Positions 3,516 through 48,700 of a stretch of DNA of 64,000 nt are shown here, one piece after another. Every line of letters begins with the position of its first letter. The stretch's first letter is position 1. The DNA is taken from NCBI RefSeq assembly GCF_035084215.1, contig NC_090329.1, positions 126,914,001 to 126,978,000 of the forward strand. The letters are read 5' to 3'. The notes under the pieces were generated by a model that saw only the letters and a list, made by a program, of their open reading frames with translations, did not search any database and was not told where the DNA came from. Position numbers and translations under genes: made by a program. The stretch is from Heptranchias perlo. Lineage: Eukaryota.

Positions 3516-3559
3516 GTAAGTACCGAGACACTGGGGCAATTCCCACTGGAGGAGAGAAG

Positions 3560-10200: not shown

Positions 10201-10488
10201 CAGCTCACACTGCTCACACCGCTCACACCACACACACAGCTCACACCACTCACACAGCTCACACCGCTCACACCACTCACACCGCTCACACCACTCACAC
10301 AGCTCACACCGCTCACACCGCTCACACCACACACACAGCTCACACCACTCACACAGCTCACACCGCTCACACCACTCACACCGCTCACACCACTCACACA
10401 GCTCACACCGCTCACACAGCTCACACTGCTCACACCACTCACACCACTCACACAGCTCACACCGCTCACACAGCTCACACCGCTCACA

Positions 10489-10637
10489 NNNNNNNNNNNN
10501 NNNNNNNNNNNNNNNNNNNNNNNNNNNNNNNNNNNNNNNNNNNNNNNNNNNNNNNNNNNNNNNNNNNNNNNNNNNNNNNNNNNNNNNNNNNNNNNNNNNN
10601 NNNNNNNNNNNNNNNNNNNNNNNNNNNNNNNNNNNNN
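10489..10637. other. N block (149 bp)
   Basis: Run of n inside the 9-bp satellite. Confidence 0.99.
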
Positions 10638-11943: not shown

Positions 11944-12076
11944 NNNNNNNNNNNNNNNNNNNNNNNNNNNNNNNNNNNNNNNNNNNNNNNNNNNNNNNNN
12001 NNNNNNNNNNNNNNNNNNNNNNNNNNNNNNNNNNNNNNNNNNNNNNNNNNNNNNNNNNNNNNNNNNNNNNNNNNNN
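11944..12076. other. N block (133 bp)
   Basis: Run of n. Confidence 0.99.
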
Positions 12077-14444: not shown

Positions 14445-14579
14445 NNNNNNNNNNNNNNNNNNNNNNNNNNNNNNNNNNNNNNNNNNNNNNNNNNNNNNNN
14501 NNNNNNNNNNNNNNNNNNNNNNNNNNNNNNNNNNNNNNNNNNNNNNNNNNNNNNNNNNNNNNNNNNNNNNNNNNNNNNN
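14445..14579. other. N block (135 bp)
   Basis: Run of n. Confidence 0.99.
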
Positions 14580-15994: not shown

Positions 15995-16170
15995 NNNNNN
16001 NNNNNNNNNNNNNNNNNNNNNNNNNNNNNNNNNNNNNNNNNNNNNNNNNNNNNNNNNNNNNNNNNNNNNNNNNNNNNNNNNNNNNNNNNNNNNNNNNNNN
16101 NNNNNNNNNNNNNNNNNNNNNNNNNNNNNNNNNNNNNNNNNNNNNNNNNNNNNNNNNNNNNNNNNNNNNN
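15995..16170. other. N block (176 bp)
   Basis: Run of n. Confidence 0.99.
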
Positions 16171-19100
16171 CACACCACACACACAGCTCACACCACTCAC
16201 ACAGCTCACACAGCTCACACCGCTCACGCAGCTCACACCACTCACACAGCTCACACAGCTCACACCACTCACACCACTCACACAGCTAACACCGCTCACA
16301 CCACACACACAGCTCACACCACTCACACAGCTCACACAGCTCACACCGCTCACACAGCTCACAGAGCTCACACAGCTCACACAGCTCACACTGCTCACAC
16401 CACTCACACCGCTCACACAGCTCACACCACTCACACCGCTCACACAGCTCACACTGCTCACACCACTCACACCGCTCACACAGCTCACACTGCTCACACC
16501 ACTCACACAGCTCACACAGCTCACACCACTCACACAGCTCACACCACTCACACAGCTCACACCACTCACACAGCTCACACAGCTCACACCACTCACACCA
16601 CACACACAGCTCACACCGCTCACACAGCTCACACCACTCACACCGCTCACACCACTCACACCACACACACCACTCACACCACTCACACAGCTCACACAGC
16701 TCACACCGCTCACACCACACACACAGCTCACACCACTCACACCACACACACCACACACACAGCTCACACAGCTCACACTGCTCACACCGCTCACACAGCT
16801 CACACTGCTCACACCACTCACACCACACACACCACACACACAGCTCACACCGGTCACACCACTCACACCGCTCACACAGCTCACACTGCTCACACCACTC
16901 ACACCACACACACCACACACACAGCTCACACCGCTCACACCGCTCACACCGCTCACACCACACACACCACACACACCACACACACAGCTCACACCACTCA
17001 CACCGCTCACACCACACACACAGCTCACACAGCTCACACCACTCACACCACTCACACAGCTCACACCGCTCACACCACTCACACAGCTCACACAGCTCAC
17101 ACTGCTCACACCACTCACACCACACACACCACACACACAGCTCACACCACTCACACCGCTCACACCACACACACAGCTCACACAGCTCACACTGCTCACA
17201 CCACTCACACCACACACACCACACACACAGCTCACACCGCTCACACCGCTCACACCACTCACACCGCTCACACCGCTCACACCACACACACCACACACAC
17301 CACACACACAGCTCACACCACACACACCACACACACCACACACACAGCTCACACCACTCACACAGCTCACACAGCTCACACCGCTCACACTGCTCACACC
17401 ACTCACACCACTCACACAGCTCACACCGCTCACACAGCTCACACCACACACACCACACACACCGCTCACACCGCTCACACAGCTCACACAGCTCACACTG
17501 CTCACACCACTCACACCACACACACAGCTCACACAGCTCACACAGCTCACACCTCTCACACAGCTCACACCGCTCACACCGCTCACACCACACACACAGC
17601 TCACACCACTCACACAGCTCACACCGCTCACACCACTCACACCGCTCACACCACTCACACAGCTCACACCGCTCACACAGCTCACACTGCTCACACCACT
17701 CACACCACTCACACAGCTCACACCGCTCACACAGCTCACACCACTCACACCACTCACACAGCTCACACCACTCACACCACTCACACCACTCACACAGCTC
17801 ACACCGCTCACACAGCTCACACCGCTCACACCGCTCACACCGCTCACACCACACACACAGCTCACACCACTCACACCGCTCACACCACTCACACCACTCA
17901 CACCACTCACACAGCTCACACCGCTCACACCGCTCACACCACACACACAGCTCACACCACTCACACGGCTCACACCGCTCACACAGCTCACACTGCTCAC
18001 ACCACTCACACCACTCACACAGCTCACACCGCTCACACAGCTCACACCACTCACACAGCTCACACCACTCACACCACTCACACAGCTCACACCACTCACA
18101 CCACTCACACAGCTCACACCACTCACACCACTCACACCACTCACACAGCTCACACCACTCACACAGCTCACACCACTCACACCACTCACACAGCTCACAC
18201 CGCTCACACCGCTCACACCACACACACAGCTCACACCACTCATACCACACACACCACTCACACAGCTCACACAGCTCACACCGCTCACGCAGCTCACACC
18301 GCTCACGCAGCTCACACCACTCACACAGCTCACACAGCTCACACCGCTCACACAGCTCACAGAGCTCACACAGCTCACACAGCTCACACAGCTCACACAG
18401 CTCACACCACTCACACCGCTCACACCACTCACACCGCTCACACAGCTCACACTGCTCACACCACTCACACCGCTCACACAGCTCACACTGCTCACACCAC
18501 TCACACAGCTCACACAGCTCACACAGCTCACACAGCTCACACCACTCACACCGCTCACACCACTCACACCGCTCACACAGCTCACACTGCTCACACCACT
18601 CACACCGCTCACACAGCTCACACTGCTCACACCACTCACACCGCTCACACAGCTCACACTGCTCACACCACTCACACAGCTCACACAGCTCACACCGCTC
18701 ACACAGCTCACACCACTCACACCACTCACACAGCTCACACCACTCACACAGCTCACACAGCTCACACCACTCACACCACTCACACCACTCACACAGCTCA
18801 CACCACTCACACAGCTCACACAGCTCACACCACTCACACCACACACACAGCTCACACCACTCACACCGCTCACACAGCTCACACCACTCACACAGCTCAC
18901 ACAGCTCACACCACTCACACAGCTCACACAGCTCACACCACTCACACCACACACACCACACACACAGCTCACACAGCTCACACCGCTCACACCACACACA
19001 CAGCTCACACCACTCACACCACACACACAGCTCACACCACACACAGCTCACACAGCTCACACTGCTCACACCGCTCACACAGCTCACACTGCTCACACCA

Positions 19101-22100
19101 CTCACACCACACACACCACACACACAGCTCACACCGGTCACACCACTCACACCGCTCACACAGCTCACACTGCTCACACCACACACACCACACACACAGC
19201 TCACACCGCTCACACCGCTCACACCACACACACCACACACACCACACACACCACACACACAGCTCACACCACTCACACCGCTCACACCACACACACAGCT
19301 CACACAGCTCACACCACTCACACAGCTCACACCGCTCACACAGCTCACACCACTCACACCACTCACACAGCACACACCGCACACACCGCTCACACCGCTC
19401 ACACCACTCACACAGCTCACACAGCTCACACTGCTCACACCACTCACACCACACACACCACACACACAGCTCACACCACTCACACCGCTCACACCACACA
19501 CACAGCTCACACAGCTCACACTGCTCACACCACTCACACCACACACACCACACACACAGCTCACACCACACACATTGCTCACACCGCTCACACCACTCAC
19601 ACCGCTCACACCACACACACCACACACACCACACACACAGCTCACACCACACACACCACACACACCACACACACAGCTCACACCACTCACACAGCTCACA
19701 CCACTCACACCGCTCACACAGCTCACACAGCTCACACCACTCACACCACACACACCACACACACCGCTCACACAGCTCACACAGCTCACACCACACACAC
19801 AGCTCACACAGCTCACACCGCTCACACCACTCACACAGCTCACACAGCTCACACCACTCACACAGCTCACACCACTCACACCGCTCACACAGCTCACACC
19901 ACTCACACCACTCACACAGCTCACACCACTCACACCGCTCACACCGCTCACGCAGCTCACACCACTCACACAGCTCACACAGCTCACACCACTCACACAG
20001 CTCACACCACTCACACCGCTCACACAGCTCACACCACTCACACCGCTCACACAGCTCACACAGCTCACACCACTCACACCGCTCACACCACTCACACCAC
20101 TCACACAGCTCACACCACTCACACCACTCACACAGCTCACACCACTCACACCGCTCACACCACTCACACAGCTCACACAGCTCACACAGCTCACACCACT
20201 CACACAGCTCACACCACTCACACCGCTCACACCACTCACACAGCTCACACCACTCACACCGCTCACACCACTCACACAGCTCACACCACTCACACAGCTC
20301 ACACCACTCACACCACTCACACAGCTCACACACAGCTCACACCACACACACAGCTCACACCACTCACACCACTCACACAGCTCACACAGCTCACACAGCT
20401 CACACAGCTCACACCACACACACAGCTCACACCGCTCACACAGCTCACACCACTCACACCACTCACACAGCTCACACCACACACACAGCTCACACAGCTC
20501 ACACAGCTCACACCACACACACAGCTCACACAGCTCACACAGCTCACACCACTCACACCACTCACACAGCACACACCGCTCACACCACTCACACAGCTCA
20601 CACCACTCACACAGCTCACACAGCTCACACAGCTCACACAGCTCACACCGCTCACACCGCTCACACCGCTCACACCGCTCACACCACTCACACCGCTCAC
20701 ACCGCTCACACAGCTCACACCACTCACACCGCTCACACAGCTCACACCACTCACACAGCTCACACCGCTCACACAGCTCACACCACACACACAGCTCACA
20801 CCGCTCACACCACTCACACCGCTCACACCGCTCACACCGCTCACACCACTCACACAGCTCACACCACTCACACCGCTCACACCACTCACACCGCTCACAC
20901 CACTCACACCACTCACACCGCTCACACCACTCACACAGCTCACACAGCTCACACAGCTCACACCACTCACACAGCTCACACCGCTCACACAGCTCACACC
21001 ACTCACACAGCTCACACAGCTCACACAGCTCACACCACTCACACAGCTCACACAGCTCACACCACTCACACCGCTCACACCACTCACACCGCTCACACCG
21101 CTCACACAGCTCACACCACTCACACCGCTCACACAGCTCACACCACTCACACAGCTCACACCGCTCACACAGCTCACACCACACACACAGCACACACCGC
21201 ACACACCACTCACACCGCTCACACCGCTCACACCACTCACACCGCTCACACCGCTCACACCACTCACACAGCTCACACAGCTCACACAGCTCACACCACT
21301 CACACAGCTCACACAGCTCACACCGCTCACACAGCTCACACAGCTCACACAGCTCACACCACTCACACAGCTCACACAGCTCACACCACTCACACAGCTC
21401 ACACCACTCACATAGCTCACACCACTCACACCACACACACAGCTCACACCACACACACAGCTCACACCGCTCACACCGCTCACACCACTCACACCACTCA
21501 CACAGCTCACACCACTCACACAGCACACACCACTCACACCACACACACAGCTCACACCACACACACAGCTCACACCGCTCACACCGCTCACACCACTCAC
21601 ACCACTCACACAGCTCACACCGCTCACACAGCTCACACAGCACACACCACACACACTGCTCACACCACTCACACAGCTCACACCGCTCACACCACACACA
21701 CAGCTCACACCGCTCACACCGCTCACACCACTCACACAGCTCACACCACTCACACAGCACACACCACACACACTGCTCACACCACTCACACAGCTCACAC
21801 CGCTCACACCACTCACACAGCTCACACCACTCACACAGCACACACCACTCACACAGCACACACCACACACACTGCTCACACCACTCACACAGCTCACACC
21901 GCTCACACCACTCACACTGCTCACACCACTCACACAGCTCACACCGCTCACACCACTCACACCGCTCACACCACACACACAGCTCACACCGCTCACACCG
22001 CTCACACCACTCACACAGCTCACACCGCTCACACCACTCACACCACACACACAGCTCACACAGCTCACACCGCTCACACAGCTCACACCGCTCACACCGC

Positions 22101-25100
22101 TCACACAGCTCACACCGCTCACACCACACACACAGCTCACACAGCTCACACCGCTCACACCACTCACACCACTCACACAGCACACACCGCTCACACCACT
22201 CACACCACACACACAGCTCACACTGCTCACACAGCTCACACAGCTCACACCGCTCACACAGCTCACACAGCTCACACCGCTCACACCACTCACACAGCTC
22301 ACACAGCTCACACCGCTCACACCACACACACAGCTCACACCACTCACACCACACACACCACACACACAGCTCACACTGCTCACACAGCTCACACCGCTCA
22401 CACAGCTCACACTGCTCACACAGCTCACACCGCACACACCACACACACAGCTCACACAGCTCACACCACACACACAGCTCACACAGCTCACACCACTCAC
22501 ACCACACACACAGCTCACACAGCTCACACCGCTCACACAGCTCACACCACTCACACAGCTCACACAGCTCACACCACTCACACCACTCACACAGCTCACA
22601 CCGCTCACACAGCTCACACCACACACACAGCTCACACAGCTCACACCGCTCACACAGCTCACACAGCTCACACCACTCACACAGCTCACACCACTCACAC
22701 AGCTCACACCGCTCACACCACACACACCACTCACACAGCTCACACCACTCACACCGCTCACACCACTCACACAGCTCACACAGCTCACACCACTCACACC
22801 ACTCACACAGCTCAGACCGCTCACACCGCTCACACAGCTCACACACAGCCCACACCACACACACAGCTCACACCGCTCACACCGCTCACACAGCTCACAC
22901 ACAGCTCACACCACACACACCACTCACACCACTCACACCGCTCACACAGCTCACACCGCTCACACCGCTCACACAGCTCACACACAGCCCACACCACTCA
23001 CACCACACACACAGCCCACACCACACACACAGCTCACACCGCTCACACCACTCACACAGCTCACACTACTCACACTGCTCACACTGCTCACACTGCTCAA
23101 ACTGCTCACACCACACACACCACTCACACAGCTCACACTGCTCACACCGCTCACACAGCTCACACAGCTCACACAGCTCACACTACTCACACTGCTCACA
23201 CCACACACACAGCTCACACCGCACACACCACTCACACAGCTCACACTACTCACACTGCTCACACCGCTCACACAGCTCACACAGCTCACACTACTCACAC
23301 TGCTCACACTACTCACACTGCTCCCACTGCTCACACCACACACACAGCTCACACCGCACACACCACTCACACAGCTCACACTACTCACACTGCTCACACC
23401 GCTCACACAGCTCACACAGCTCACACTGCTCACACTGCTCAAACTGCTCACACAGCTCACACCACACACACAGCTCACACCACTCACACCACTCACACCA
23501 CTCACACAGCTCACACAGCTCACACCACACACACAGCTCACACACAGCTCACACCACACACACAGCTCACACAGCTCACACCGCTCACACCGCTCACACC
23601 ACTCACACCACACACACAGCTCACACAGCTCACACAGCTCACACCACACACACAGCTCTCACAGCTCACACCGCTCACACCACACACACCGCTCACACCG
23701 CTCACACTGCTCACACAGCTCACACCGCTCACACCACTCACACCGCTCACACAGCTCACACCACTCACACCACACACACAGCTCACACCACACACACCAC
23801 TCACACCGCTCACACCACACACACAGCTCACACCACACACACAGCTCACACAGCTCACACCACTCACACAGCTCACACAGCTCACACCACTCACACAGCT
23901 CACACACAGCTCACACCGCTCACACAGCTCACACCACTCACACCACACACACAGCTCACACCACACACACAGCTCACACAGCTCACACCGCTCACACCGC
24001 TCACACCACACACACAGCTCACACCACTCACACCACACACACAGCTCACACAGCTCACACCACTCACACAGCTCACACAGCTCACACCACTCACACAGCT
24101 CACACCACTCACACCACACACACAGCTCACACCACACACACAGCTCACACCACTCACACCACACACACAGCTCACACCACACACACAGCTCACACCACTC
24201 ACACACCTCACACAGCTCACACAGCTCACACCGCTCACACAGCTCACACAGCTCACACAGCTCACACCACTCACACAGCTCACACCACTCACACAGCTCA
24301 CACCACTCACACCGCTCACACAGCTCACACCGCTCACACAGCTCACACAGCTCACACCACTCACACAGCTCACACACAGCTCACACCGCTCACACCACTC
24401 ACACAGCTCACACCACTCACACAGCTCACACCACTCACACAGCTCACACCACTCACACAGCTCACACCACTCACACCACACACACAGCTCACACAGCTCA
24501 CACCGCTCACACAGCTCACACCACTCACACAGCTCACACAGCTCACACCACTCACACCACACACACAGCTCACACCACTCACACAGCTCACACAGCTCAC
24601 ACCACTCACACAGCTCACACAGCTCACACCGCTCACACAGCTCACACAGCTCACACCACTCACACAGCTCACACACAGCTCACACTGCTCACACAGCTCA
24701 CACCGCTCACACCACTCACACAGCTCACACCACTCACACAGCTCACACCACTCACACAGCTCACACAGCTCACACCACTCACACCACACACAGAGCTCAC
24801 ACAGCTCACACCACTCACACAGCTCACACAGCTCACACCGCTCACACCACTCACACAGCTCACACCACTCACACAGCTCACACCACTCACACAGCTCACA
24901 CAGCTCACACCACTCACACCACACACACAGCTCACACAGCTCACACCACTCACACAGCTCACACAGCTCACACAGCTCACACCACTCACACAGCTCACAC
25001 AGCTCACACCGCTCACACCACTCACACAGCTCACACCACTCACACAGCTCACACCACTCACACAGCTCACACAGCTCACACCACTCACACCACTCACACA

Positions 25101-28100
25101 GCTCACACCACTCACACAGCACACACCACTCACACAGCTCACACAGCTCACACAGCTCACACCACTCACACAGCTCACACACAGCTCACACTGCTCACAC
25201 AGCTCACACCGCTCACACCACTCACACAGCTCACACCACTCACACAGCTCACACCGCTCACACAGCTCACACCACTCACACAGCTCACACCGCTCACACA
25301 GCTCACACCACTCACACCACTCACACAGCTCACACCACTCACACCACTCACACAGCTCACACCGCTCACACAGCTCACACCACTCACACCACTCACACAG
25401 CTCACACCACTCACACCACTCACACAGCTCACACAGCTCACACAGCTCACACCACTCACACCACACACACAGCTCACACCGCTCACACAGCTCACACCAC
25501 TCACACCGCTCACACCACACACACAGCTCACACAGCTCACACCGCTCACACAGCTCACACAGCTCACACCACTCACACCACACACACCACTCACACAGCA
25601 CACACCACTCACACAGCTCACACCACTCACACAGCTCACACAGCTCACACAGCTCACACCACTCACACAGCTCACACAGCTCACACCACTCACACAGCAC
25701 ACACCACTCACACAGCTCACACCACTCACACAGCTCACACCACTCACACCACTCACACAGCTCACACAGCTCACACAGCTCACACCACACACACAGCTCA
25801 CACAGCTCACACCACTCACACAGCTCACACCATTCACACCACACACACAGCTCACACAGCTCACACCGCTCACACAGCTCACACTGCTCACACCACTCAC
25901 ACCACTCACACAGCTCACACCGCTCACACAGCTCACACCACACACACAGCTCACACAGCTCACACAGCTCACACCACTCACACCACACACACAGCTCACA
26001 CAGCTCACACCACTCACACAGCTCACACAGCTCACACCGCTCACACAGCTCACACTGCTCACACCACTCACACCACTCACACAGCTCACACCGCTCACAC
26101 AGCTCACACCACACACACAGCTCACACAGCTCACACCACTCACACAGCTCACACCACTCACACAGCTCACACCATTCACACAGCTCACACCGCTCACACA
26201 GCTCACACAGCTCACACCACTCACACCACTCACACCACTCACACAGCTCACACCACACACACAGCTCACACAGCTCACACAGCTCACACCACACACACAG
26301 CTCACACAGCTCACACCGCTCACACAGCTGACACACAGCTCACACCACTCACACAGCTCACACCGCTCACACAGCTCACACACAGCCCACACCACACACA
26401 CAGCTCACACCGCTCACACAGCTCACACAGCTCACACACAGCTCACACCGCTCACACCACTCACACAGCTCACACTACTCACACTACTCACACTGCTCAC
26501 ACCACACACACCACTCACACAGCTCACACTGCTCACACCGCTCACACAGCTCACACAGCTCACACAGCTCACACTACTCACACTGCTCACACCACACACA
26601 CAGCTCACACCGCACACACCACTCACACAGCTCACACTACTCACACTGCTCACACCGCTCACACAGCTCACACAGCTCACACTACTCACACTGCTCACAC
26701 TACTCACACTGCTCCCACTGCTCACACCACACACACAGCTCACACCGCACACACCACTCACACAGCTCACACTACTCACACTGCTCACACCGCTCACACA
26801 GCTCACACAGCTCACACTGCTCACACTGCTCAAACTGCTCACACAGCTCACACCACACACACAGCTCACACCACTCACACCACTCACACCACTCACACAG
26901 CTCACACAGCTCACACCACACACACAGCTCACACACAGCTCACACCACACACACAGCTCACACAGCTCACACCACACACACAGCTCACACAGCTCACACC
27001 GCTCACACCGCTCACACCACTCACACCACACACACAGCTCACACAGCTCACACAGCTCACACCACACACACAGCTCACACAGCTCACACCGCTCACACCA
27101 CACACACCGCTCACACCGCTCACACTGCTCACACAGCTCACACCGCTCACACCACTCACACCGCTCACACAGCTCACACCACTCACACCACACACACAGC
27201 TCACACCACACACACAGCTCACACAGCTCACACCGCTCACACCACACACACAGCTCACACCACACACACAGCTCACACAGCTCACACCACTCACACAGCT
27301 CACACAGCTCACACCACTCACACAGCTCACACACAGCTCACACCGCTCACACAGCTCACACCACTCACACCACACACACAGCTCACACCACACACACAGC
27401 TCACACAGCTCACACCGCTCACACCGCTCACACCACACACACAGCTCACACCACTCACACCACACACACAGCTCACACAGCTCACACCACTCACACAGCT
27501 CACACAGCTCACACCACTCACACAGCTCACACACAGCTCACACCACACACACAGCTCACACCACTCACACCACACACACAGCTCACACAGCTCACACCAC
27601 TCACACAGCTCACACAGCTCACACCACTCACACAGCTCACACACAGCTCACACCACACACACAGCTCACACCACTCACACCACACACACAGCTCACACCA
27701 CTCACACCGCTCACACAGCTCACACCGCTCACACAGCTCACACAGCTCACACCACTCACACAGCTCACACACAGCTCACACTGCTCACACAGCTCACACC
27801 GCTCACACCACTCACACAGCTCACACCACTCACACAGCTCACACCACTCACACAGCTCACACAGCTCACACCACTCACACCACACACACAGCTCACACAG
27901 CTCACACAGCTCACACCGCTCACACAGCTCACACCACTCACACAGCTCACACCGCTCACACCACTCACACAGCTCACACAGCTCACACCACTCACACAGC
28001 TCACACAGCTCACACAGCTCACACCACTCACACACAGCTCACACAGCTCACACCGCTCACACCACTCACACAGCTCACACCACTCACACAGCTCACACCA

Positions 28101-31100
28101 CACACACAGCTCACACAGCTCACACCACTCACACAGCTCACACAGCTCACACCGCTCACACCACTCACACAGCTCACACCACTCACACCACTCACACAGC
28201 TCACACACAGCTCACACCACTCACACAGCTCACACAGCTCACACCACTCACACAGCTCACACACAGCTCACACCGCTCACACCACTCACACTGCTCACAC
28301 TGCTCACACCACACACACAGCTCACACCGCACACACCACTCACACAGCTCACACTACTCACACTGCTCACACCGCTCACACTACTCACACTGCTCAAACT
28401 GCTCACACAGCTCACACCACACACACAGCTCACACCACTCACACAGCTCACACTACTCACACTGCTCACACCACACACACAGCTCACACCGCTCACACAG
28501 CTCACACCGCTCACACCACACACACCACTCACACCGCTCACACAGCTCACACCGCTCACACCACACACACAGCTCACACCGCTCACACCACTCACACAGC
28601 TCACACCGCTCACACAGCTCACACCGCTCACACAGCTCACACAGCTCACACAGCTCACACCACTCACACAGCTCACACACAGCTCACACTGCTCACACAG
28701 CTCACACCGCTCACACCACTCACACAGCTCACACCACTCACACAGCTCACACCACTCACACAGCTCACACAGCTCACACCACTCACACCACACACACAGC
28801 TCACACAGCTCACACAGCTCACACCGCTCACACAGCTCACACCACTCACACAGCTCACACACAGCTCACACTGCTCACACCGCTCACACCACTCACACAG
28901 CTCACACAGCTCACACCACTCACACAGCTCACACAGCTCACACAGCTCACACAGCTCACACCACTCACACACAGCTCACACAGCTCACACCGCTCACACC
29001 ACTCACACAGCTCACACCACTCACACAGCTCACACCACTCACACAGCTCACACCGCTCACACCACTCACACAGCTCACACCACTCACACCACTCACACAG
29101 CTCACACACAGCTCACACCGCTCACACCACTCACACTGCTCACACAGCTCACACCACTCACACAGCTCACACAGCTCACACCACTCACACAGCTCACACA
29201 CAGCTCACACCGCTCACACCACTCACACTGCTCACACTGCTCACACCACACACACAGCTCACACCGCACACACCACTCACACAGCTCACACTACTCACAC
29301 TGCTCACACCGCTCACACTACTCACACTGCTCAAACTGCTCACACAGCTCACACCACACACACAGCTCACACCACTCACACCACTCACACAGCTCACACT
29401 ACTCACACTGCTCACACCACACACACAGCTCACACCACTCACACTGCTCACACTGCTCACACCACACACACAGCTCACACCGCACACACCACTCACACAG
29501 CTCACACTACTCACACTGCTCACACCGCTCACACTACTCACACTGCTCAAACTGCTCACACAGCTCACACCACACACACAGCTCACACCACTCACACCAC
29601 TCACACAGCTCACACTACTCACACCGCTCACACCACACACACCACTCACACCGCTCACACAGCTCACACCGCTCACACCACACACACAGCTCACACCGCT
29701 CACACCACTCACACAGCTCACACCGCTCACACAGCTCACACCACACACACAGCTCACACCACTCACACCACACACACCACTCACACAGCTCACACAGCTC
29801 ACACCACTCACACAGCTCACACCACTCACACAGCTCACACCGCTCACACCACTCACACAGCTCACACCGCTCACACCGCTCACACCACACACACCGCTCA
29901 CACCGCTCACACCACACACACAGCTCACACAGCTCACACCGCTCACACCGCTCACACCGCTCACACCGCTCACACCACACACACAGCTCACACAGCTCAC
30001 ACAGCTCACACCGCTCACACCGCTCACACCACACACACAGCTCACACAGCTCACACCGCTCACACCACACACACAGCTCACACCGCACACACCGCTCACA
30101 CCGCTCACACCGCTCACACAGCTCACACAGCTCACACAACTCACACAGCTCACACCACACACACCGCTCACACCGCTCACACAGCTCACACCACACACAC
30201 CACACACACAGCTCACACAGCTCACACCGCTCACACCACACACACCGCTCACACCGCTCACACAGCTCACACCACACACACCACACACACAGCTCACACA
30301 GCTCACACCACTCACACCGCTCACACCACACACACAGCTCACACCACACACACAGCTCACACCACTCACACCGCTCACACCACACACACAGCTCACACCA
30401 CACACACCACACACACAGCTCACACAGCTCACACCACTCACACCGCTCACACCACACACACAGCTCACACCACACACACAGCTCACACCACTCACACCAC
30501 TCACACCACACACACACAGCTCACACCACTCACACAGCTCACACCACACACACAGCTCACACCACTCACACCACACACACACAGCTCACACCACACACAC
30601 AGCTCACACCACTCACACCGCTCACACCACTCACACCGCTCACACCACACACACAGCTCACACCACACACACCACTCACACCACACACACAGCTCACACC
30701 ACTCACACCACTCACACCACACACACACAGCTCACACCGCTCACACAGCTCACACAGCTCACACAGCTCACACAGCTCACACCGCTCACACAGCTCACAC
30801 CACTCACACCGCTCACACAGCTCACACAGCTCACACCGCTCACACTGCTCACACCGCTCACACCGCTCACACCACTCACACCGCACACACCACACACACA
30901 GCTCACACCGCTCACACTGCTCACACCGCTCACACAGCTCACACCACTCACACAGCTCACACCACACACACCGCTCACACAGCTCACACCACACACACCG
31001 CTCACACAGCTCACACCACTCACACAGCTCACACCACACACACAGCTCACACCGCTCACACAGCTCACACCACACACACAGCTCACACCGCTCACACACA

Positions 31101-33257
31101 GCTCACACCACACACACCACTCACACAGCTCACACCACACACACCGCTCACACAGCTCACACCGCTCACACCGCTCACACAGCTCACACCGCTCACACCA
31201 CTCACACAGCTCACACAGCTCACACCGCTCACACCGCTCACACAGCTCACACACAGCTCACACCGCTCACACCACTCACACAGCTCACACTACTCACACT
31301 GCTCACACTGCTCACACCACACACACAGCTCACACCGCTCACACCGCTCACACAGCTCACACAAAGCTCACACCGCTCACACCACTCACACAGCTCACAC
31401 TACTCACACCGCTCACACAGCTCACACCGCTCACACAGCTCACACAGCTCACACACAGCTCACACCGCTCACACCACTCACACAGCTCACACGACTCACA
31501 CTGCTCACACTGCTCACACCACACACACAGCTCACACCGCTCACACAGCTCACACTACTCACACTGCTCACACTGCTAACACTGCTCAAACTGCTCACAC
31601 AGCTCACACCACACACACCACTCACACAGCTCACACTACTCACACAGCTCACACAGCTCACACCGCTCACACAGCTCACACAGCTCACACTACTCACACT
31701 ACTCACACTGCTCACACTGCTCACACAGCTCACACCGCACACACCACTCACACAGCTCACACTACTCACACTGCTCACACCGCTCACACTACTCACACTG
31801 CTCACACCGCTCACACTACTCACACTGCTCACACCACACACACAGCTCACACCGCACACACCACTCACACAGCTGACACTACTCACACTGCTCACACCGC
31901 TCACACAGCTCACACACCTCACACTACTCACACACCTCACACAGCTCACACAGCTCACACTACTCACACTGCTCACACTGCTCACACTGCTCAAACTGCT
32001 CACACAGCTCACACCACACACACAGCTCACACCACTCACACAGCTCACACAGCTCACACCACACACACAGCTCACACACAGCTCACACCACACACACAGC
32101 TCACACAGCTCACACCACACACACAGCTCACACAGCTCACACCGCTCACACCGCTCACACCACTCACACCACACACACCACACACACAGCTCACACAGCT
32201 CACACAGCTCACACCACACACACAGCTCACACAGCTCACACCGCTCACACCACACACACCGCTCACACCGCTCACACTGCTCACACAGCTCACACCGCTC
32301 ACACCACTCACACCGCTCACACAGCTCACACCGCTCACACTGCTCACACTGCTCACACAGCTCACACCACTCACACCACACACACCACACACACAGCTCA
32401 CACCACACACACAGCTCACACCGCTCACACCACACACACCGCTCACACCGCTCACACTGCTCACACTGCTCACACAGCTCACACCACTCACACCACACAC
32501 ACCACACACACAGCTCACACCACACACACAGCTCACACAGCTCACACCGCTCACACCACACACAACACACACACTGCTCACACCACTCACACCACACACA
32601 CCACACACACCGCTCACACCACTCACACAGCTCACACAGCTCACACCACTCACACAGCTCACACACAGCTCACACCACACACACAGCTCACACCACTCAC
32701 ACAGCTCACACAGCTCACACCGCACACACCACTCACACAGCTCACACAGCTCACACAGCTCACACCACTCACACAGCTCACACAGCTCACACCGCTCACA
32801 CCACTCACACCACTCACACAGCTCACACCACACACACAGCACACACCGCTCACACAGCTCACACAGCTCACACACACCGCACACACAGCTCACACCACAC
32901 ACACCACTCACACCACTCACACAGCTCACACTACTCACACTGCTCACACGACTCACACTGCTCACACAGCTCACACCGCTCACACAGCTCACACTGCTCA
33001 CACCGCTCACACAGCTCACACTGCTCACACAGCTCACACCGCTCACACAGCTCACACAGCTCACACCACTCACACCACTCACACCACTCACACAGCTCAC
33101 ACAGCTCACACCGCTCACACAGCTCACACTGCTCACACCGCTCACACAGCTCACACCACTCACACTGCTCACACCGCACACACAGCTCACACTGCTCACA
33201 CCGCACACACTGCTCACACTACTCAGACTGCTCAACAGCAGCTCCATAGATCAGCAA

Positions 33258-36200
33258 TGGTGTGAGACAGAGCGGGTGACGGTGAGGGAGTGTGAGACAG
33301 AGCGGGTGAGGGTGAGGGAGTGTGAGACAGAGCGGGTGAGGGTGAGGGAGTGTAAGACAGAGCGGGTGAGTGTGGGGGAGTGTGAGACAGAGCGGGTGAG
33401 GGTGAGGGAGTGTGAGACAGAGCGGGTGAGGGAGTGTGAGTAAGAGCGGGTGAGGGTGGGGGAGTGTGAGACAGAGCGGGTGAGGTGAGGGAGTGTAAGA
33501 CAGAGCGCGTGAGGGTGAGGGAGTGTAAGACAGAGCGGGTGAGTGTGGGGGAGTGCAAGACAGAGCGGGTGAGGGTGGGGGAGTGTGAGACAGAGCGGGT
33601 GAGGGTGAGGGAGTGTAAGACAGAGCGGGTGAGGGTGGGGGAGTGTGAGACAGAGCGGGTGAGGGTGAGGGAGTGTGAGACAGAGCGGGTGAGGGTGAGG
33701 GAGTGTGAGACAGAGCGGGTGAGGGTGAGGGAGTGTGAGACAGAGCGGGTGAGGGTGGGGGAGTGTGAGACAGAGCGGGTGAGGGTGAGGGAGTGTAAGA
33801 CAGAGCGGGTGAGGGTGGGGGAGTGTGAGACAGAGCGGGTGAGGGTGAGGGAGTGTGAGACAGAGCGGGTGAGGGTGGGGGAGTGTAAGACAGAGCGGGT
33901 GAGGGTGAGGGAGTGTAAGACAGAGCGGGTGAGTGTGGGGGAGTGTGAGACAGAGCGGGTGAGGGTGAGGGAGTGTGAGACAGAGCGGGTGAGGGTGGGG
34001 GAGTGTGAGACAGAGCGGGTGAGTGTGGGGGAGTGTGAGACAGAGCGGGTGAGGGTGAGGGAGTGTGAGACAGAGCGGGTGAGGGAGTGTGAGACAGAGC
34101 GGGTGAGGGTGAGGGAGTGTAAGACAGAGCGGGTGAGGGTGAGGGAGTGTAAGACAGAGCGGGTGAGTGTGGGGGAGTGTGAGACAGAGCGGGTGAGGGT
34201 GGGGGAGTGTGAGACAGAGCGGGTGAGGGAGTGTGAGACAGAGCGGGTGAGGGTGGGGGAGTGTGAGACAGAGCGGGTGAGGGTGAGGGAGTGTGAGACA
34301 GAGCGGGTGAGGGTGAGGGAGTGTGAGACAGAGCGGGTGAGGGTGGGGGAGTGTGAGACAGAGCGGGTGAGGGTGAGGGAGTGTAAGACAGAGCGGGTGA
34401 GGGTGGGGGAGTGTGAGACAGAGCGGGTGAGGGTGAGGGAGTGTGAGACAGAGCGGGTGAGGGAGTGTGAGACAGAGCGGGTGAGGGTGAGGGAGTGTGA
34501 GACAGAGCGGGTGAGGGTGAGGGAGTGTGAGACAGAGCGGGTGAGGGTGGGGGAGTGTAAGACAGAGCGGGTGAGGGTGAGGGAGTGTAAGACAGAGCGG
34601 GTGAGTGTGGGGGAGTGTGAGACAGAGCGGGTGAGGGTGGGGGAGTGTGAGACAGAGCGGGTGAGGGAGTGTGAGACAGAGCGGGTGAGGGTGAGGGAGT
34701 GTAAGACAGAGCGGGTGAGGGTGGGGGAGTGTGAGACAGAGCGGGTGAGGGTGAGGGAGTGTGAGACAGAGCGGGTGAGGGTGGGGGAGTGTGAGACAGA
34801 GCGGGTGAGGGTGGGGGAGTGTGAAACAGAGCGGGTGAGGGTGAGGGAGTGTAAGACAGAGCGGGTGAGGGTGAGGGAGTGTAAGACAAAGCGGGTGAGG
34901 GTGGGGGAGTGTGAGACAGAGCGGGTGAGGGTGAGGGAGTGTGAAACAGAGCGGGTGAGTGTGGGGGAGTGTGAGACAGAGCGGGTGAGGGTGAGGGTGG
35001 GGGAGTGTGAAACAGAGCGGGTGAGGGTGAGGGAGTGTGAGACAGAGCGGGTGAGGGTGAGGGAGTGTGAAACAGAGCGGTTGAGGGTGAGGGAGTGTGA
35101 GACAGAGCGGGTGAGGGTGAGGGAGTGTGAGACAGAGCGGGTGAGGGTGAGGGAGTGTGAGACAGAGCGGGTGAGGGTGAGGGAGTGTGAGACAGAGCGG
35201 GTGAGGGTGAGGGAGTGTGAGACAGAGCGGGTGAGGGTGGGGGAGTGTAAGACAGAGCGGGTGAGGGTGAGGGAGTGTAAGACAGAGCGGGTGAGGGTGA
35301 GGGTGGGGGAGTGTGAGACAGAGCGGGTGAGGGTGTGGGAGTGTGAGACAGACCGGGTGAGTGTGAGGGAGTGTGAGACAGAGCGGGTCAGGGTGTGGGA
35401 GTGGGAGACAGAGCGGGTGAGTGTGAGGGAGTGTGAGACAGAGCGGGTGAGGGTGAGGGAGTGTGAGACAGAGCGGGTGAGTGTGGGGGAGTGTGAGACA
35501 GAGCGGGTGAGTGTGAGGGAGTGTGAGACAGAGCGGGTGAGGGTGAGGGAGTGTGAGACAGAGCGGGTGAGGGTGGGGGAGTGTGAGACAGAGCGGGTGA
35601 GTGTGAGGGAGTGTGAGACAGAGCGGGTGAGGGTGGGGGAGTGTAAGACAGAGCGGGTGAGGGTGAGGGTGGGGGAGTGTGAGACAGTGCGGGTGAGGGT
35701 GAGGGAGTGTAAGACAGAGCGGGTGAGGGTGAGGGAGTGTAAGACAGAGCGGGTGAGGGTGAGGGTGGGGGAGTGTGAGACAGTGCGGGTGAGGGTGAGG
35801 GAGTGTAAGACAGAGCGGGTGAGGGTGAGGGAGTGTAAGACAGAGCGGGTGAGTGTGGGGGAGTGTGAGACAGAGCGGGTGAGGGTGAGGGAGTGTGAGA
35901 CAGAGCGGGTGAGGGTGGCGAGTGTGAGACAGAGCGGGTGAGGGTGAGGGAGTGTAAGACAGAGCGGGTGAGTGTGGGGGAGTGTGAGACAGAGCGGGTG
36001 AGGGTGAGGGAGTGTGAGACAGAGCGGGTGAGGGAGTGTGAGACAGAGCGGGTGAGGGTGAGGGAGTGTAAGACAGAGCGGGTGAGGGTGAGGGAGTGTA
36101 AGACAGAGCGGGTGAGTGTGGGGGAGTGTGAGACAGAGCGGGTGAGGGTGGGGGAGTGTGAGACAGAGCGGGTGAGGGTGGGGGAGTGTGAGACAGAGCG

Positions 36201-39200
36201 GGTGAGGGTGAGGGAGTGTGAGACAGAGCGGGTGAGGGTGGGGGAGTGTGAGACAGAGCGGGTGAGGGTGGGGGAGTGTGAAACAGAGCGGGTGAGGGTG
36301 AGGGAGTGTAAGACAGAGCGGGTGAGGGTGAGGGAGTGTAAGACAAAGCGGGTGAGGGTGGGGGAGTGTGAGACAGAGCGGGTGAGGGTGAGGGAGTGTG
36401 AAACAGAGCGGGTGAGTGTGGGGGAGTGTGAGACAGAGCGGGTGAGGGTGAGGGTGGGGGAGTGTGAAACAGAGCGGGTGAGGGTGAGGGAGTGTGAGAC
36501 AGAGCGGGTGAGGGTGAGGGAGTGTGAAACAGAGCGGTTGAGGGTGAGGGAGTGTGAGACAGAGCGGGTGAGGGTGAGGGAGTGTGAGACAGAGCGGGTG
36601 AGGGTGAGGGAGTGTGAAACAGAGCGGTTGAGGGTGAGGGAGTGTGAGACAGAGCGGGTGAGGGTGAGGGAGTGTGAGACAGAGCGGGTGAGGGTGAGGG
36701 AGTGTGAGACAGAGCGGGTGAGGGTGAGGGAGTGTGAGACAGAGCGGGTGAGGGTGAGGGAGTGTGAGACAGAGCGGGTGAGGGTGAGGGAGTGTGAGAC
36801 AGAGCGGGTGAGGGTGGGGGAGTGTAAGACAGAGCGGGTGAGGGTGAGGGAGTGTAAGACAGAGCGGGTGAGGGTGAGGGTGAGGGAGTGTGAGACAGAG
36901 CGGGTGAGGGTGTGGGAGTGTGAGACAGAGCGGGTGAGGGTGAGGGAGTGTGAGACAGAGCGGGTGAGGGTGTGGGAGTGTGAGACAGAGCGGGTGAGGG
37001 TGAGGGAGTGTAGGACAGAGCGGGTGAGTGTGGGGGAGTGTGAGACAGAGCGGGTGAGTGTGAGGGAGTGTGAGACAGAGCGGGTGAGGGTGAGGGAGTG
37101 TGAGACAGAGCGGGTGAGGGTGGGGGAGTGTGAGACAGAGCGGGTGAGTGTGAGGGAGTGTGAGACAGAGCGGGTGAGGGTGAGGGAGTGTGAGACAGAG
37201 CGGGTGAGTGTGAGGGAGTGTGAGACAGAGCGGGTGAGGGTGGGGGAGTGTAAGACAGAGCGGGTGAGGGTGGGGGAGTGTAAGACAGAGCGGGTGAGGG
37301 TGAGGGTGGGGGAGTGTGAGACAGTGCGGGTGAGGGTGAGGGAGTGTGAGACAGAGCGGGTGAGGGTGAGGGAGTGTAAGACAGAGCGGGTGAGTGTGGG
37401 GGAGTGTGAGACAGAGCGGGTGAGGGTGAGGGAGTGTGAGACAGAGCGGGTGAGTGTGAGGGAGTGTGAGACAGAGCGGGTGAGGGTGAGGGAGTGTGAG
37501 ACAGAGCGGGTGAGTGTGAGGGAGTGTGAGACAGAGCGGGTGAGGGTGAGGGAGTGTGAGACAGAGCGAGTGAGTGTGAGGGAGTGTGAGACAGAGCGGG
37601 TGAGGGTGAGGGAGTGTGAGACAGAGCGGGTGAGGGTGAGGGAGTGTGAGACAGAGCGGGTGAGGGTGAGGGAGTGTGAGACAGAGCGGGTGAGGGTGAG
37701 GGAGTGTGAGACAGAGCGGGTGAGTGTGAGGGAGTGTGAGACAGAGCGGGTGAGGGTGGGGGAGTGTGAGTCAGAGCGGTTGAGGGTGAGGGAGTGTAAG
37801 ACAGAGCGGGTGAGGGTGAGGGTGGGGGAGTGTGAGACAGAGCGGGTGAGGGTGAGGGAGTGTGAAACAGAGCGGGTGAGGGTGAGGGAGTGTGAGACAG
37901 AGCGGGTGAGGGTGAGGGAGTGTGAGACAGAGCGGGTGAGGGTGAGGGAGTGTGAGACAGAGCGGGTGAGGGAGTGTAAGACAGAGCGGGTGAGGGTGGG
38001 GGAGTGTGAGACAGAGCGGGTGAGGGTGGGGGAGTGTGAGACAGAGCGGGTGAGGGTGAGGGAGTGTAAAACAGAGCGGGTGAGGGTGGGGGAGTGTAAG
38101 ACAGAGCGGGTGAGGGTGAGGGAGTGTGAGACAGAGCGGGTGAGGGTGAGGGAGTGTAAGACAGAGCGGGTGAGTGTGAGGGAGTGTGAGACTGAGCGGG
38201 TGAGTGTGAGGGAGTGTGAGACAGTGCGGGTGAGGGTGAGGGAGTGTGAGACAGAGCGGGTGAGGGTGAGGGAGTGAGAGACAGAGCGGGTGAGGGTGGG
38301 GGAGTGTGAGACAGAGCGGGTGAGGGTGGGGGAGTGTGAGACAGAGCGGGTGAGGGTGAGGGAGTGTGAGACAGAGCGGGTGAGGGAGTGTGAGACAGAG
38401 CGGGTGATGGTGAGGTAGTGTGAAACAAAGCGGTTGAGGGTGAGGGAGTGTGAGACAGAGCGGGTGAGGGTGAGGGAGTGTGAGACAGAGCGGGTGAGGG
38501 TGGGGGAGTGTGAGACAGAGCGGGTGAGGGTGAGGGAGTGTTAGACGGGTGAGGGTGAGGGAGTGTGAGACAGAGCGGGTGAGGGTGAGGGAGTGTGAGA
38601 CAGAGCGGGTGAGGGTGGGGGAGTGTGAGACAGAGCGGGTGAGGTTGAGGGAGTGTGAGACAGAGCGGGTGAGGGTGAGGGAGTGTGAGACAGAGCGGGT
38701 GAGGGTGAGGGAGTGTGAGACAGAGCAGGTGAGGGTGAGGGAGTGTGAGACAGAGCGGGTGAGGGTGAGGGAGTGTGAGACAGAGCAGGTGAGGGTGAGG
38801 GAGTGTGAGACAGAGCGGGTGAGGGTGGGAGTGTGTGAGACAGAGCGGGTGAGGGTGAGGGAGTGTGAGACAGAGCGGGTGAGGGTGGAGGAGTGTGAGA
38901 CAGAGCGGGTGAGGGTGGGGGAGTGTGAGACAGAGCGAGTGAGGGTGAGGGAGTGTAAGACAGAGCGGGTGAGGGTGGGGGAGTGAGAGACAGAGCGGGT
39001 GAGGGTGAGGGAGTGTGAAACAGAGCGGGTGAGGGTGAGGGAGTGTGAAACAGAGCGGGTGAGGGTGAGGGAGTGTGAGACAGAGCGGGTGAGGGTGAGG
39101 GAGTGTGAGACAGAGCGGGTGAGGGTGAGGGAGTGTGACACAGAGCGGGTGAGGGTGAGGGAGTGTAAGACAGAGCGGGTGAGGGTGGGGGATTGTGAGA

Positions 39201-40810
39201 CAGAGCGGGTGAGGGTGAGGGAGTGTGAGACAGAGCGGGTGAGGGTGAGGGAGTGTGAGACAGAGCGGGTGAGGGTGGGGGAGTTTGAGACAGAGAGTGT
39301 GAGGGTGAGGGAGTGTGAGACAGAGCGGGTGAGGGTGAGGGAGTGTGAGACAGAGCGGGTGAGGATGAGGGAGTGTAAGACAGAGCGGGTGAGGGTGGGG
39401 TAGTGTGAGACAGAGCGGGTGATGGTGAGGGAGTGTGAAACAGAGCGGGTGAGGGTGAGGGAGTGTAAGACAGAGCGGGTGAGGGTGAGGGAGTGTAAGA
39501 CAGAGCGGGTGAGGGTGGGGGAGTGTAAGACAGAGCGGGTGAGGGTGAGGGAGTGTGAGACAGAGCGGGTGAGGGAGTGTAAGACAGAGCGGGTGAGTGT
39601 GAGGGAGTGTGAGACAGAGCGGGTGAGTGTGAGGGAGTGTGAGACAGAGCGGGTGAGCTTGAGGGAGTGTGAGACGGTGAGGGTGAGGGAGTGTGAGACA
39701 GAGCAGGTGAGGGTGAGGGAGTGAGAGACAGAGCGGGTGAGGGTGGGGGAGTGTGAGACAGAGCGGGTGAGGGTGGGGGAGTGTGAGACAGAACGGGTGA
39801 GGGTGAGGGAGTGTGAGACAGAGCGGGTGAGGGTGGGGGAGTGTGAGACAGAGCGGGTGAGGGTGAGGGAGTGTGAGACAGAGCGGGTGAGGGTGAGCGA
39901 GTGTGAGACAGAGCGGGTGAGGGTGAGGGAGTGTGAGACAGAGCGGGTGAGGGAGTGTGAGACAGAGCGGGTGAGGGTGAGGGAGTGTGAGACAGAGCGG
40001 GTGAGGGTGAAGAAGTGTGAGACAGAGCGGGTGAGGGTGAGGGAATGTGAGACAGAGCGGGTGAGGGTGAGGGAGTGTGAGACAGAGCGGGTGAGGGTGA
40101 GGGAGTGTGAGACAGAGCGGGTGAGGGAGTGTGAGACAGAGCGGGTGAGGGTGAGGGAGTGTGAGACAGAGCGGGTGAGGGTGAGGGAATGTGAGACAGA
40201 GCGGGTGAGGGTGAGGGAGTGTGAGACAGAGCGGGTGAGGGTGAGGGAGTGTGAGACAGAGCGGGTGAGGGTGGGGGAGTGTGAGACAGAGCGGGTGAGG
40301 GTGAGGGAGTGTGAGACAGAGCGGGTGAGGGTGAGGGAGTGTGAGACAGAGCGGGTGAGGGTGAGGAAGTGTGAGACAGAGCGGGTGAGGGTGAGGGAGT
40401 GTGAGACAGAGCGGGTGCGGGTGAGGGAGTGTGAGACAGAGCGGGTGAGGGTGAGGGAGTGTGAGACAGAGCGGGTGAGGGTGGGGGAGTGTGAGACAGA
40501 GCGGGTGAGGGTGAGGGAGTGTAAGACAGAGCGGGTGAGGTTGGGGGAGTGTGAGACAGAGCGGGTGAGGGTGAGGGAGTGTGAGACAGAGCGGGTGAGG
40601 GAGTGTGAGACAGAGCGGGTGAGGGTGAGGGAGTGTGAGACAGAGCGGGTGAGGGTGAGGGTGAGGGAGTGTGAGACAGAGCGGGTGAGGGTGAGGGAGT
40701 GTGAGACAGAGCGGGTGAGGGTGAGGGAGTGTGAGACAGAGCGGGTGAGGGTGTGGGAGTGTGAAACAGAGCAGGTGAGGTTGGGGGAGTGTAAGACAGA
40801 GCGAGTGAGG
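33258..40810. repeat. 30-bp tandem array GTGTGAGACAGAGCGGGTGAGGGTGAGGGA (24- and 36-bp variants by loss/gain of GGGTGA)
   Basis: Highly homogeneous 30-bp period; reads as ECETERVRVR repeats. Confidence 0.98.
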
Positions 40811-42435
40811 GTGTCGGAGGTTTGGACGGTGAGGGTGGGGGAGGTTTGGACGGTGAGGGTGGGGGAGGTTTGGACGGTGAGGGTGTGGAAGTTTTGGGCG
40901 GTGAGGGTCAGGGAGTTTTGGACGGTGAGGGTGGGGGAGTGTGAGACAGAGCGGGTGAGGGTGTGGGAAGTTTGGACGGTGAGGGTGGGGGAGGTTTGGA
41001 CGGTGAGGGTGGGGGAGTGTGAGACAGAGCGTGAGAGGGTGAGGGAGTATGAGACAGAGCGGGTGAGGGTGGGGGAGTTTGAGACAGAGCGGGTGAGGGT
41101 TGGGGAGGTTTAGACGGTGAGGGTAGGGGAGGTTTGGATGGTGAGGGTGGGGGAGATTTGGACCGTGAGGTTCGGGGAGGTTTGGACGGTGAGGGTGGGG
41201 GAGTTTTGGACCGTGAGGGTGGGGGAGTTTTGGACGGTGAGGGTGGGGGAGATTTGGACAGTGACGATGGAGGAGTTTTGGACGGTGAGGGTGGGGGAGG
41301 TTTGGACCGTGAGGGTGGGGGAGTTTTGGACGGTGAGGGTGGGGTAGTTTTGGACGGTGAGGGTGGGGGAGGTTTGGACAGTGACGATGGAGGAGTTTTG
41401 GACGGTGAGGGTGGGGGAGGTTTGGACGGTGAGGGTGGGGGAGGTTTGGACAGTGACGGTGGAGGAGTTTTGGACGGTGAGGGTGGGGGAGATTTGGACG
41501 GTGAGGGTGGAGGAGTTTTGGACGGTGAGGGTGGGGGAGATTTGGACAGTGACGGTGGAGGAGTTTTGGACGGTGAGGGTGGGGGAGATTTGGACGGTGA
41601 GGGTGGGGTAGTTTTGGACGGTGAGGGTGGGGGAGGTTTGGACAGTGACGGTGGAGGAGTTTTGGACGGTGAGGGTGGGGGAGATTTGGACGGTGAGGGT
41701 GGAGGAGTTTTGGACGGTGAGGGTGGGGGAGATTTGGACGGTGAGGGTGGAGGAGTTTTGGACGGTGAGGGTGGGGGAGATTTGGACAGTGACGGTGGAG
41801 GAGTTTTGGACGGTGAGGGTGGGGGAGTTTTGGACGGTGAGGGTGGGGGAGATTTGGACAGTGAGGGTGGGGGAGTATTGGACAGTGACGATGGAGGAGT
41901 TTTGGACGGTGAGGGTGGGGGAGGTTTGGACAGTCACGGTGGAGGAGTTTTGGACGGTGAGGGTGGGGGAGGTTTGGACAGTGACGGTGGAGGAGTTTTG
42001 GACGGTGAGGGTGGGGGAGTTTTGGACAGTGAGGGTGACGGTGGAGGAGTTTTGGACGGTGAGGGTGGTGGATTTTTGGACGGTGAGGGTGGGGGAGTAT
42101 TGGACAGTGACGATGGGGGAGGTTTGGACGGTGAGGGTGGGGGAGGTTTGGACAGTCACGGTGGAGGAGTTTTGGACGGTGAGGGTGGGGGAGATTTGGA
42201 CAGTGACGGTGGAGGAGTTTTGGACGGTGAGGGTGGGGGAGGTTTGGACAGTGACGGTGGAGGAGTTTTGGACGGTGAGGGTGGGGGAGATTTGGACAGT
42301 GACGGTGGAGGAGTTTTGGACGGTGAGGGTGGGGGAGTTTTGGACAGTGAGGGTGACGGTGGAGGAGTTTTGGACGGTGAGGGTGGGGGAGATTTGGACG
42401 GTGAGGGTGGTGGATTTTTGGACCGTGAGGGTGGA
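40811..42435. repeat. 24-bp tandem array GAGTTTTGGACGGTGAGGGTGGGG, interleaved with the 30-mer at 40810-41110
   Basis: 24-bp period; shares GGTGAGGGTGGGGGAG with the 30-mer. Confidence 0.96.
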
Positions 42436-42630
42436 GACAAAGACTGTGGTACTTTTGATGAGTTGAAAATGAAGAACTGTGGATGCCGGCTGGAAGATCA
42501 TTGGAAACATCAATGAGGTTATGAAGACATGGCGTAGGGACCGGAGAGGAAGGCCATGTTGTAGAGGCAGAAGAAGGCAGTTTTGGTAAAGGAGCAGGTG
42601 TGGGGTGGAACCTGAGCTCAGGCTGAGCAG
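42436..42630 (-). mobile_element. Highly decayed L2 LINE ORF2 fragment
   Basis: Minus strand gives PELRF and FTKTAFFCLYNMA (L2-type TKTAFFHLRNIA). Plus-strand GCCGGCTGGAAGATCATTGGAAACATC aligns to the L2 copy at ~63159 (GCCGGCCAGGAGAGCATTGGAATAGTC). Confidence 0.65.
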
Positions 42631-42809
42631 AATTCCAAGGTCCCACCCTCCTTAATAACCGAGTTGATTCTGTAATTATTAGCTCTTGTCTGATTAAGTT
42701 CATATTTACTGCCGCCTACCTCACTGATACCAATTTAATTGGCCCTTTGCCACCAATTTTGGAATGATTAACATTTACCTCTTTAATATTATAATTATTA
42801 TAATTATAA

Positions 42810-47785: not shown

Positions 47786-48369
47786 ATCAACAAAAACAAC
47801 AACAACTTGCATTTATATAGCACCTTTAGCATAGTAAAACGTCCCAAGGGGCTTCACAGGAGTGATTATCAAACAAAAATTTGACACCGAGCCACATAAA
47901 GAGCTATTAGGACAGGTGAACAAAAGCTTGGTTGAAGTGGTAGTTTTTAAGGAGTGTCTTAAAGGAGGAGAGAGAGGTAGAGAGGCGGAGAGGTTTAGGG
48001 AGGGAATTCCAGAGCTTAGGGCCGAAGCAGCTGAAGGCACGGCCGCCAATGGTGGAGCGATTAAAATCAGGGATGCGCAAGAGGCAAGAATTGAAGGAGC
48101 GCAGAGATCTCGGAGGGTTGTAGGGCTGGAGGAGGTTATAGTGATAGGGAGGGGCGAGACCATAGAGGGATTTGAAAACAAGGATGAGATTTTTAAAATC
48201 GAGGAATTGCCGGTCCAGGCGTCAGTGTAGGTCAGCGAGCAGAGGGGTGATGGGAGAACACGGCTTAGTGCGAGTTAGGATACGGGCAGCAGAGTCTTGG
48301 ATGAGCTCAAGTTTATGGAGGGTGGCAGATGGGAGGCCGACCTGGAGAGCATTGGAATAGTCAAGTCTA
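47786..48369 (-). mobile_element. L2 LINE, 3' part (split; continues at 53749)
   Basis: (AAC)n tail; minus-strand translation LDYSNALQVGLPSATLHKLELIQDSAARILTRTKPCSPITPLLADLH, typical of L2 ORF2. Collinear with 62513-63190. Confidence 0.9.
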
Positions 48370-48700
48370 CATCGAGTTACTTCGAAACAACAGCACAGAA
48401 ACAGGCCATTCGGCCCAACTGGTCTATGCTGGCGTTTATGCTCCACACGAGCCTCCTCTCTGCCTACTTCATCTAACCCTATCAGCATACCCTCCAATTC
48501 CTTCCTCCCCCATGTATTTATCTAGTTTCCCATTAAATGCATCTTTGCTAGTCGCCTCAATTGCTCCTTGTGGTAGCACGTTCCACATTCTTACCGCTCT
48601 TTGGGTAAAGACATTTTTCCTGAATTCCCTATTGGATTTATTAACGACGATGTTATAACTATGACCTCTAGTTTTGGACTCCTCGACAAGTGGAAACTAT
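48370..48700 (-). mobile_element. CR1 LINE 3' part (split by Harbinger; continues at 53548)
   Basis: Tail ACAGCACAGAAACAGGCCATTCGGCCC, collinear with 63775-64000, continuing to GGACTCCTCGACAAGTGGAAAC. Confidence 0.85.

Follow-up and report, generated by a model that had tools for sequence, protein, structure and literature searches.

Architecture of the locus

The window analysed here is a stretch of 64,000 nucleotides from Heptranchias perlo (assembly GCF_035084215.1, contig NC_090329.1), situated at 126.9 Mb on a contig of 137.9 Mb in a genome of 3.25 Gb. An earlier note, made from the letters alone, had described an array of about 9 kb at this place and had proposed that it expanded from inside an L2 LINE, both flanks of which would still be readable. 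The array itself is real by TRF and runs from 33260 to 42434, with about 253 30-mers followed by 66 24-mers, so that it comprises some 320 units in two diverged unit blocks. For the region this is an ordinary size: tandem repeats account for 87 kb in 640 kb of neighbouring DNA, with several arrays exceeding 2 kb. The features needed in what follows are, in window positions:

4494..33234, plus strand, 9-nt array of 28.7 kb (TRF, 3184 copies), the context of the 30-mer array
33225..33259, no strand assigned, 35-nt linker separating the 9-mer array from the 30-mer array
33260..40813, plus strand, 30-nt minisatellite block (TRF, 252.8 copies, 91% matches; unit parse)
40805..42434, plus strand, 24-nt minisatellite block (TRF, 66.4 copies; unit list)
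42403..42654, minus strand, decayed LINE ORF2 remnant from the region after the RT domain, assigned to an older subfamily (nhmmer, E 1.5e-33)
47857..48376, minus strand, young-subfamily LINE 3' fragment (member of the young profile; E 1.1e-89 to an independent older profile)
62693..63201, minus strand, second young-subfamily LINE 3' fragment (match to the young profile; E 2.7e-72 to the older profile)

Modules of 6 nt compose the whole of the 9-kb array, with only three frame slips; the 24- and 36-nt variants within the 30-nt block have one module less or more, and units of 24 and 30 nt are intermixed at 40800-41110 in the unit list. The 24-nt block is a more decayed form of the unit found in the 30-nt block, where the units differ from their own consensus by about one base. 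Exact internal duplications of the array reach 207 nt. Motif counts on its G-rich strand gave 796 G3 runs and 179 relaxed and 10 strict G4 motifs. The G-rich 30-mer array and the C-rich 9-mer array, the latter containing four short N runs, face each other head to head, and their G/C skews are opposite. An open frame of 3154 codons (33251-42715, minus strand) spans the entire array; it was not taken as a gene, since modules of 6 nt that lack stop codons produce such a frame of themselves.

Further elements are scattered over the window. Matches to DDE_Tnp_4 (E 2e-14) and to a Myb/SANT-like domain (E 2.9e-6) lie at 52061-52906 and 60600-61331, pieces that we take to be as in Harbinger-type DNA transposons and that are probably two separate decayed elements. 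A 374-codon RT frame (RVT_1, E 1.7e-27) with a poly(A) run at its end occupies 54409-55600, and a second, presumably CR1-like 3' fragment without a Pfam match 50011-50901. Additional minisatellites are located at 14-1889 (26 nt), 44728-46358 (25 nt) and 63268-63662 (31/62 nt), the last of which starts about 75 nt past the point where the 63-kb LINE copy is cut. Judged by eye, borders resembling splice sites enclose short stretches at about 3440-3517, 4240-4295, 54153-54182 and 55858-55912; a putative gene may contain the arrays in its introns.

The array as a single locus

The genome was searched with one 30-nt unit, allowing at most two mismatches, and with exact 47- and 28-nt patterns. All 244 matches of the 30-nt unit fall inside the array, as do all those listed among the exact matches of the longer patterns (62 for the 47-nt and four for the 28-nt pattern), the four 28-nt matches lying without exception in the 24-nt block. 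At up to two mismatches the array is a single-locus minisatellite. A dispersed satellite family, of which copies elsewhere without L2 flanks would have spoken against the proposal of the earlier note, was looked for and ruled out at this threshold genome-wide, no unit matches being present at other loci.

The right flank and the LINE subfamilies

The decayed minus-strand LINE ORF2 that had been read to the right of the array was confirmed with a profile of young copies (42481-42645, E 4.6e-17). We further built two profiles of an older subfamily from non-overlapping sets of 34 copies, which are more decayed, and of 39 copies, two of them young-type; array sequence was used in neither. The right flank matches these with E values of 1.2e-32 (first set) and 1.5e-33 (second set) and is identical to the second older consensus at 168 of 219 positions. 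Diagnostic bases in the flank favour the old over the young type by 35 to 10 with the second set and by 39 to 10 with the first, the latter count being partly circular because that set was collected by similarity to the flank. By its sequence, the remnant belongs to an older subfamily than the 48-kb and 63-kb copies in the window.

A genome search with 42436-42660 returned 15 further loci, whose frames read as a LINE ORF2 in its C-terminal part. Pfam assigned no family to this C-terminal piece itself; the frame of one young copy has 83 relatives, many of which carry PF00078, the RT domain (best E 8.4e-51). We take the LINE family to be L2, by its peptide motifs and its 3' tail. The profile alignment of the remnant extends from 42403, and hence into the last 24-mer unit, the array ending at 42434. 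In four of four runs one short-read contig reads through the right junction and shows no difference; all of these runs derive from one sample, possibly the source of the assembly.

The unit and its match to the LINE

The 30-mer aligns to positions 382-416 of the second older consensus with 30 of 32 aligned bases identical and gaps of 1 and 2 nt, and this interval adjoins the point at which the flank alignment ends. The junction match has p 0.0006-0.004 in all four scorings, and among the other local minisatellites 54 units and strands were scored, none as high as the 30-mer. Over the whole second consensus, composition-aware scoring gives p 0.002-0.017 and simple scoring 0.11; under the latter, shuffled G-rich units also score high. 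The seed region is G-rich and of low complexity. The first older consensus, which is noisier, has its best match to the 30-mer, out of 746 nt, at 418-452, where the flank alignment begins (junction p 0.005-0.11 depending on gap cost; whole-consensus p 0.02-0.5). The best whole-consensus match of the 30-mer is therefore the junction site with both older consensuses, and among single decayed copies it falls at the junction in 14 of 34.

The 24-nt variant of the 30-mer, present in 12 copies, agrees with a 27-nt LINE seed at 22 of 24 positions, and the units of the 24-nt block agree with the same seed at 18 of 24, with gaps identical to those of the variant. By itself the 24-mer is not significant (p 0.11-0.19; p 0.08 for the anchored extension). 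Because the 30-mer and the 24-mer both fit the same 27-nt stretch, we recognise one seed and not two, contrary to the earlier note, which had derived the two units from two LINE positions; the segment it had proposed as the source of the 24-mer still sits in the right flank. A 6-nt direct repeat, GGGTGA, brackets the seed at a spacing of 27; the consensus contains 24 such 6-mer rows in all. The seed is the sole relaxed G4 motif in the second consensus, a motif that is absent from the other two consensuses. The flank lies farther from the consensus than the unit does (p 0.06), which hints weakly at an early start of the array.

Against the young-subfamily interval the 30-mer scores at chance level (p 0.41-0.93), and the young copies in the window were discarded as an alignment reference, the alignments being off-register or at chance. 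It was from young copies that the earlier note had argued. Its two landmarks, given as about 40-50 bp apart in L2 copies, do lie 40 nt apart in the 63-kb copy (63051 and 63091), and its count of 10 identities in 14 positions for the 30-mer core holds by hand but does not rise above chance. The wider claim, that the adjoining LINE interval seeded the array in place, is supported in seed and register by way of the older subfamily, while the young-subfamily evidence for it stays at chance.

The linker and the missing left side

The letters of the linker are as they had been quoted, and its proposed LINE origin is not above chance. Local alignment yields p 0.53-0.80 against the older and 0.19-0.42 against the young consensus, and anchored alignment 0.14-0.80; the comparison with the single 63-kb copy (p 0.013-0.14) is the only one to reach so low. 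Excision of the array in silico, as the earlier note had suggested, gives 108.6 bits for the joined flanks, where the right flank by itself has 108.2, and shuffled linkers joined to the right flank do as well in 186 of 200 cases. Of the two flanks held to be readable as LINE, the right one is and the left one is at chance. The linker does not resemble the 9-mer array above chance either (p 0.31).

LINE profile matches are absent from the 9-mer array, from 3951-4500 and from the 20 kb to the left of the window. The 9-mer array occupies the place where the 3' part of the LINE would be expected, and since LINEs insert starting from their 3' end, this part was probably lost later.

Other arrays on the same LINE family

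Tandem duplications were searched with 11-mers from the seed and from other sites of the LINE. Reversed patterns gave 207, 73 and 135 matches, which makes raw match counts uninformative, and flank checks were used instead. The seed 11-mer returned 248 matches, 182 of them in one array on C38, and three of the nine loci examined among the matches listed are LINE-linked (on C38, C2 and C6). The largest, at C38:23468723-23484438, spans 15.7 kb with about 463 copies of a 34-mer derived from the same LINE interval. It retains the 3' part of the LINE on its left and has SINE-like sequence on its right; the flank alone is recognised as LINE (E 8.2e-12) and continues into the array in register, and when the searched 11-mer is kept fixed, the unit match has p 0.010. 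Judged by these alignments, the C38 array arose independently from the same interval. At C2:34910640-34910781 a 4-copy 35-mer stands inside a LINE with both flanks readable and is a small true example of the two-flank arrangement that had been proposed for the 9-kb array. The locus on C6 is a short LINE-linked duplication. An array on C26 that is similar to the seed (p 0.04) was left out of the count, as it lacks a LINE flank.

The next G-rich site gave 106 matches, 100 of them listed, and six of the eight loci examined (of nine among the matches listed) are LINE-linked. They comprise a 92-copy 27-mer array at C23:32710023-32712510, in register on a young LINE copy, four similar 35-mer arrays of 5-22 copies, likewise in register on young LINE copies, near 5.35, 5.38, 5.46 and 7.02 Mb of C7, which may represent one event, and one two-copy case. 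Like the C38 array, those on C23 and C7 stand at the 5'-truncated end of the LINE, a position that may reflect an origin of these arrays during insertion. Two T/A-rich sites yielded 7 and 3 matches, of which 6 are LINE-linked and none exceeds about three copies; a third purine-rich site yielded one array, without a LINE flank, among the 100 listed of its 137 matches. The reading of the seed as one special hotspot was dropped, as the next G-rich site seeds arrays too. With the 9-kb array, the C38, C2 and C23 arrays and the C7 group, there are five separate events at two G-rich sites, against none at the two T/A-rich sites and none at the third purine-rich site, in a comparison between sites that involves small numbers and searches detecting only well-kept 11-mers. 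Tentatively, and at rather less than even odds, multi-kb minisatellites in this genome might start recurrently from G-rich stretches towards the 3' end of dead L2 ORF2s, and such stretches might account for a measurable fraction of the simple repeats on cartilaginous-fish chromosomes, with T/A-rich stretches duplicating but not expanding.

Origin of the array

The array unit matches a 27-nt stretch of the old LINE adjoining the remnant, and in-place tandem duplication of this stretch is the likely origin of the array, with a probability that we put at about 0.85. The in-register match between unit and LINE, the single locus and the 6-nt modular variants are direct observations. The history would have begun with the insertion and subsequent decay of a LINE of the older subfamily. 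Its G-rich seed would then have lost 3 nt and been duplicated between the GGGTGA repeats, by slippage or by unequal exchange between direct repeats, to give a 24-nt unit. Addition of one GGTGAG module would have produced the 30-mer, which is now dominant, while units beside the flank would have decayed into the present 24-mer. Block duplications would have carried the array to 9 kb, and the 3' part of the LINE, on the side towards the 9-mer array, would later have been overwritten or lost. G-quadruplex folding as the driver of this instability is a guess. The array is most likely neutral DNA without function.

It is unlikely that the array expanded inside a LINE of which both flanks survive, the linker being the continuation of the element. 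An 11-nt word of the linker is identical at 10 of 11 positions to the 63-kb copy, and one decayed copy on C2 has it letter for letter at the homologous place; the linker can also be aligned, with gaps, to the older consensus. This word, however, is a young-subfamily motif, whereas flank and seed are old-type, and it is present in only two of the 73 copies of the older sets, both young-type. The anchored tests and the excision are at chance, and whereas 39 of 41 profile matches of the second older set retain sequence beyond the seed on its 3' side, none is found leftwards here.

More improbable still is an unrelated G-rich origin, or arrival from elsewhere, with adjacency and match to the LINE being due to chance. 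Such an origin would sit well with the abundance of multi-kb minisatellites nearby and with the high scores of shuffled G-rich units under simple scoring. Chance has to contend with the junction p values, with the 54 local units of which none matches as well, and with the position of the match exactly at the end of the flank alignment; arrival from elsewhere has to contend with a genome that holds no copy outside the array at up to two mismatches. A derivation of the 30-mer, by inversion, from the C-rich 9-mer array beside it appears very improbable indeed: the two arrays lie head to head with opposite skew and have short words in common, but the 30-mer compared with the inverted 9-mer array is at p 0.49.

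The array is a clear worked case of minisatellite birth, in which the parent element and its seed are legible, as are the direct repeat and the variants of the unit. Together with the second large, independent array, this worked case turns the LINE family into a usable natural series, in which seeds that reached two copies can be compared with those that reached kilobases. The process itself, a minisatellite seeded by a transposon, L2 included, is already known, and nothing points to a function.

Comparison with known systems

The direct-repeat model of minisatellite birth is said to go back to Haber and Louis in 1998. The 9-kb array is like that model in having a short repeat at both ends of its seed (6 nt, spacing 27) and differs from it in that only the right boundary survives here and the founding duplication is reconstructed, not observed.

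Satellites containing LINE ORF2 sequence, as named in PMC9659126, include chicken HinfI (CR1), Phodopus PROsat, seal Pvc20 and the cetacean common satellite. These repeats and the 9-kb array are alike as tandem repeats with LINE-derived sequence; those entries are satellite DNAs or named repeats, whereas ours is a single-locus array of 24-30-nt units attached to its parent copy. The unstable human G-quadruplex minisatellites of the CEB1 type (PMC2673046) resemble the array in their G-rich strand with many G3 runs. In elasmobranchs, regions dominated by simple tandem repeats are described in a recent preprint (10.1101/2025.06.08.657570); L2-seeded arrays in sharks were not found in open-access text.

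The closest parallel is human. Ahmed and Liang (2012; PMC3389668) report 7,276 transposon-derived minisatellite arrays, amounting to 23% of human minisatellites, and set out the direct-repeat model; L2a, L2b and L2c occur 275 times in the supplementary table. By their definitions, a unit is at least 70% similar to the transposon consensus, and the units here agree at 30/32, 22/24 and 18/24 with a consensus built by us and without the BLAST E-value cut-off of that paper. An overlap of array and transposon of at least one period is likewise present, the alignment starting at 42403 and the array ending at 42434. Of the input filter described there (units of at least 20 nt, GC of at least 40% and units at least 95% alike), length and GC are reached, and adjacent matches by TRF are 91% and 84%, below the 95%, though the 30-nt units lie within about one base of their own consensus. 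The human cases and the 9-kb array have in common a unit made from a transposon segment, a single locus and local expansion; the human arrays mostly consist of two to a few units, whereas the array described here has grown to about 320 units in two diverged blocks.
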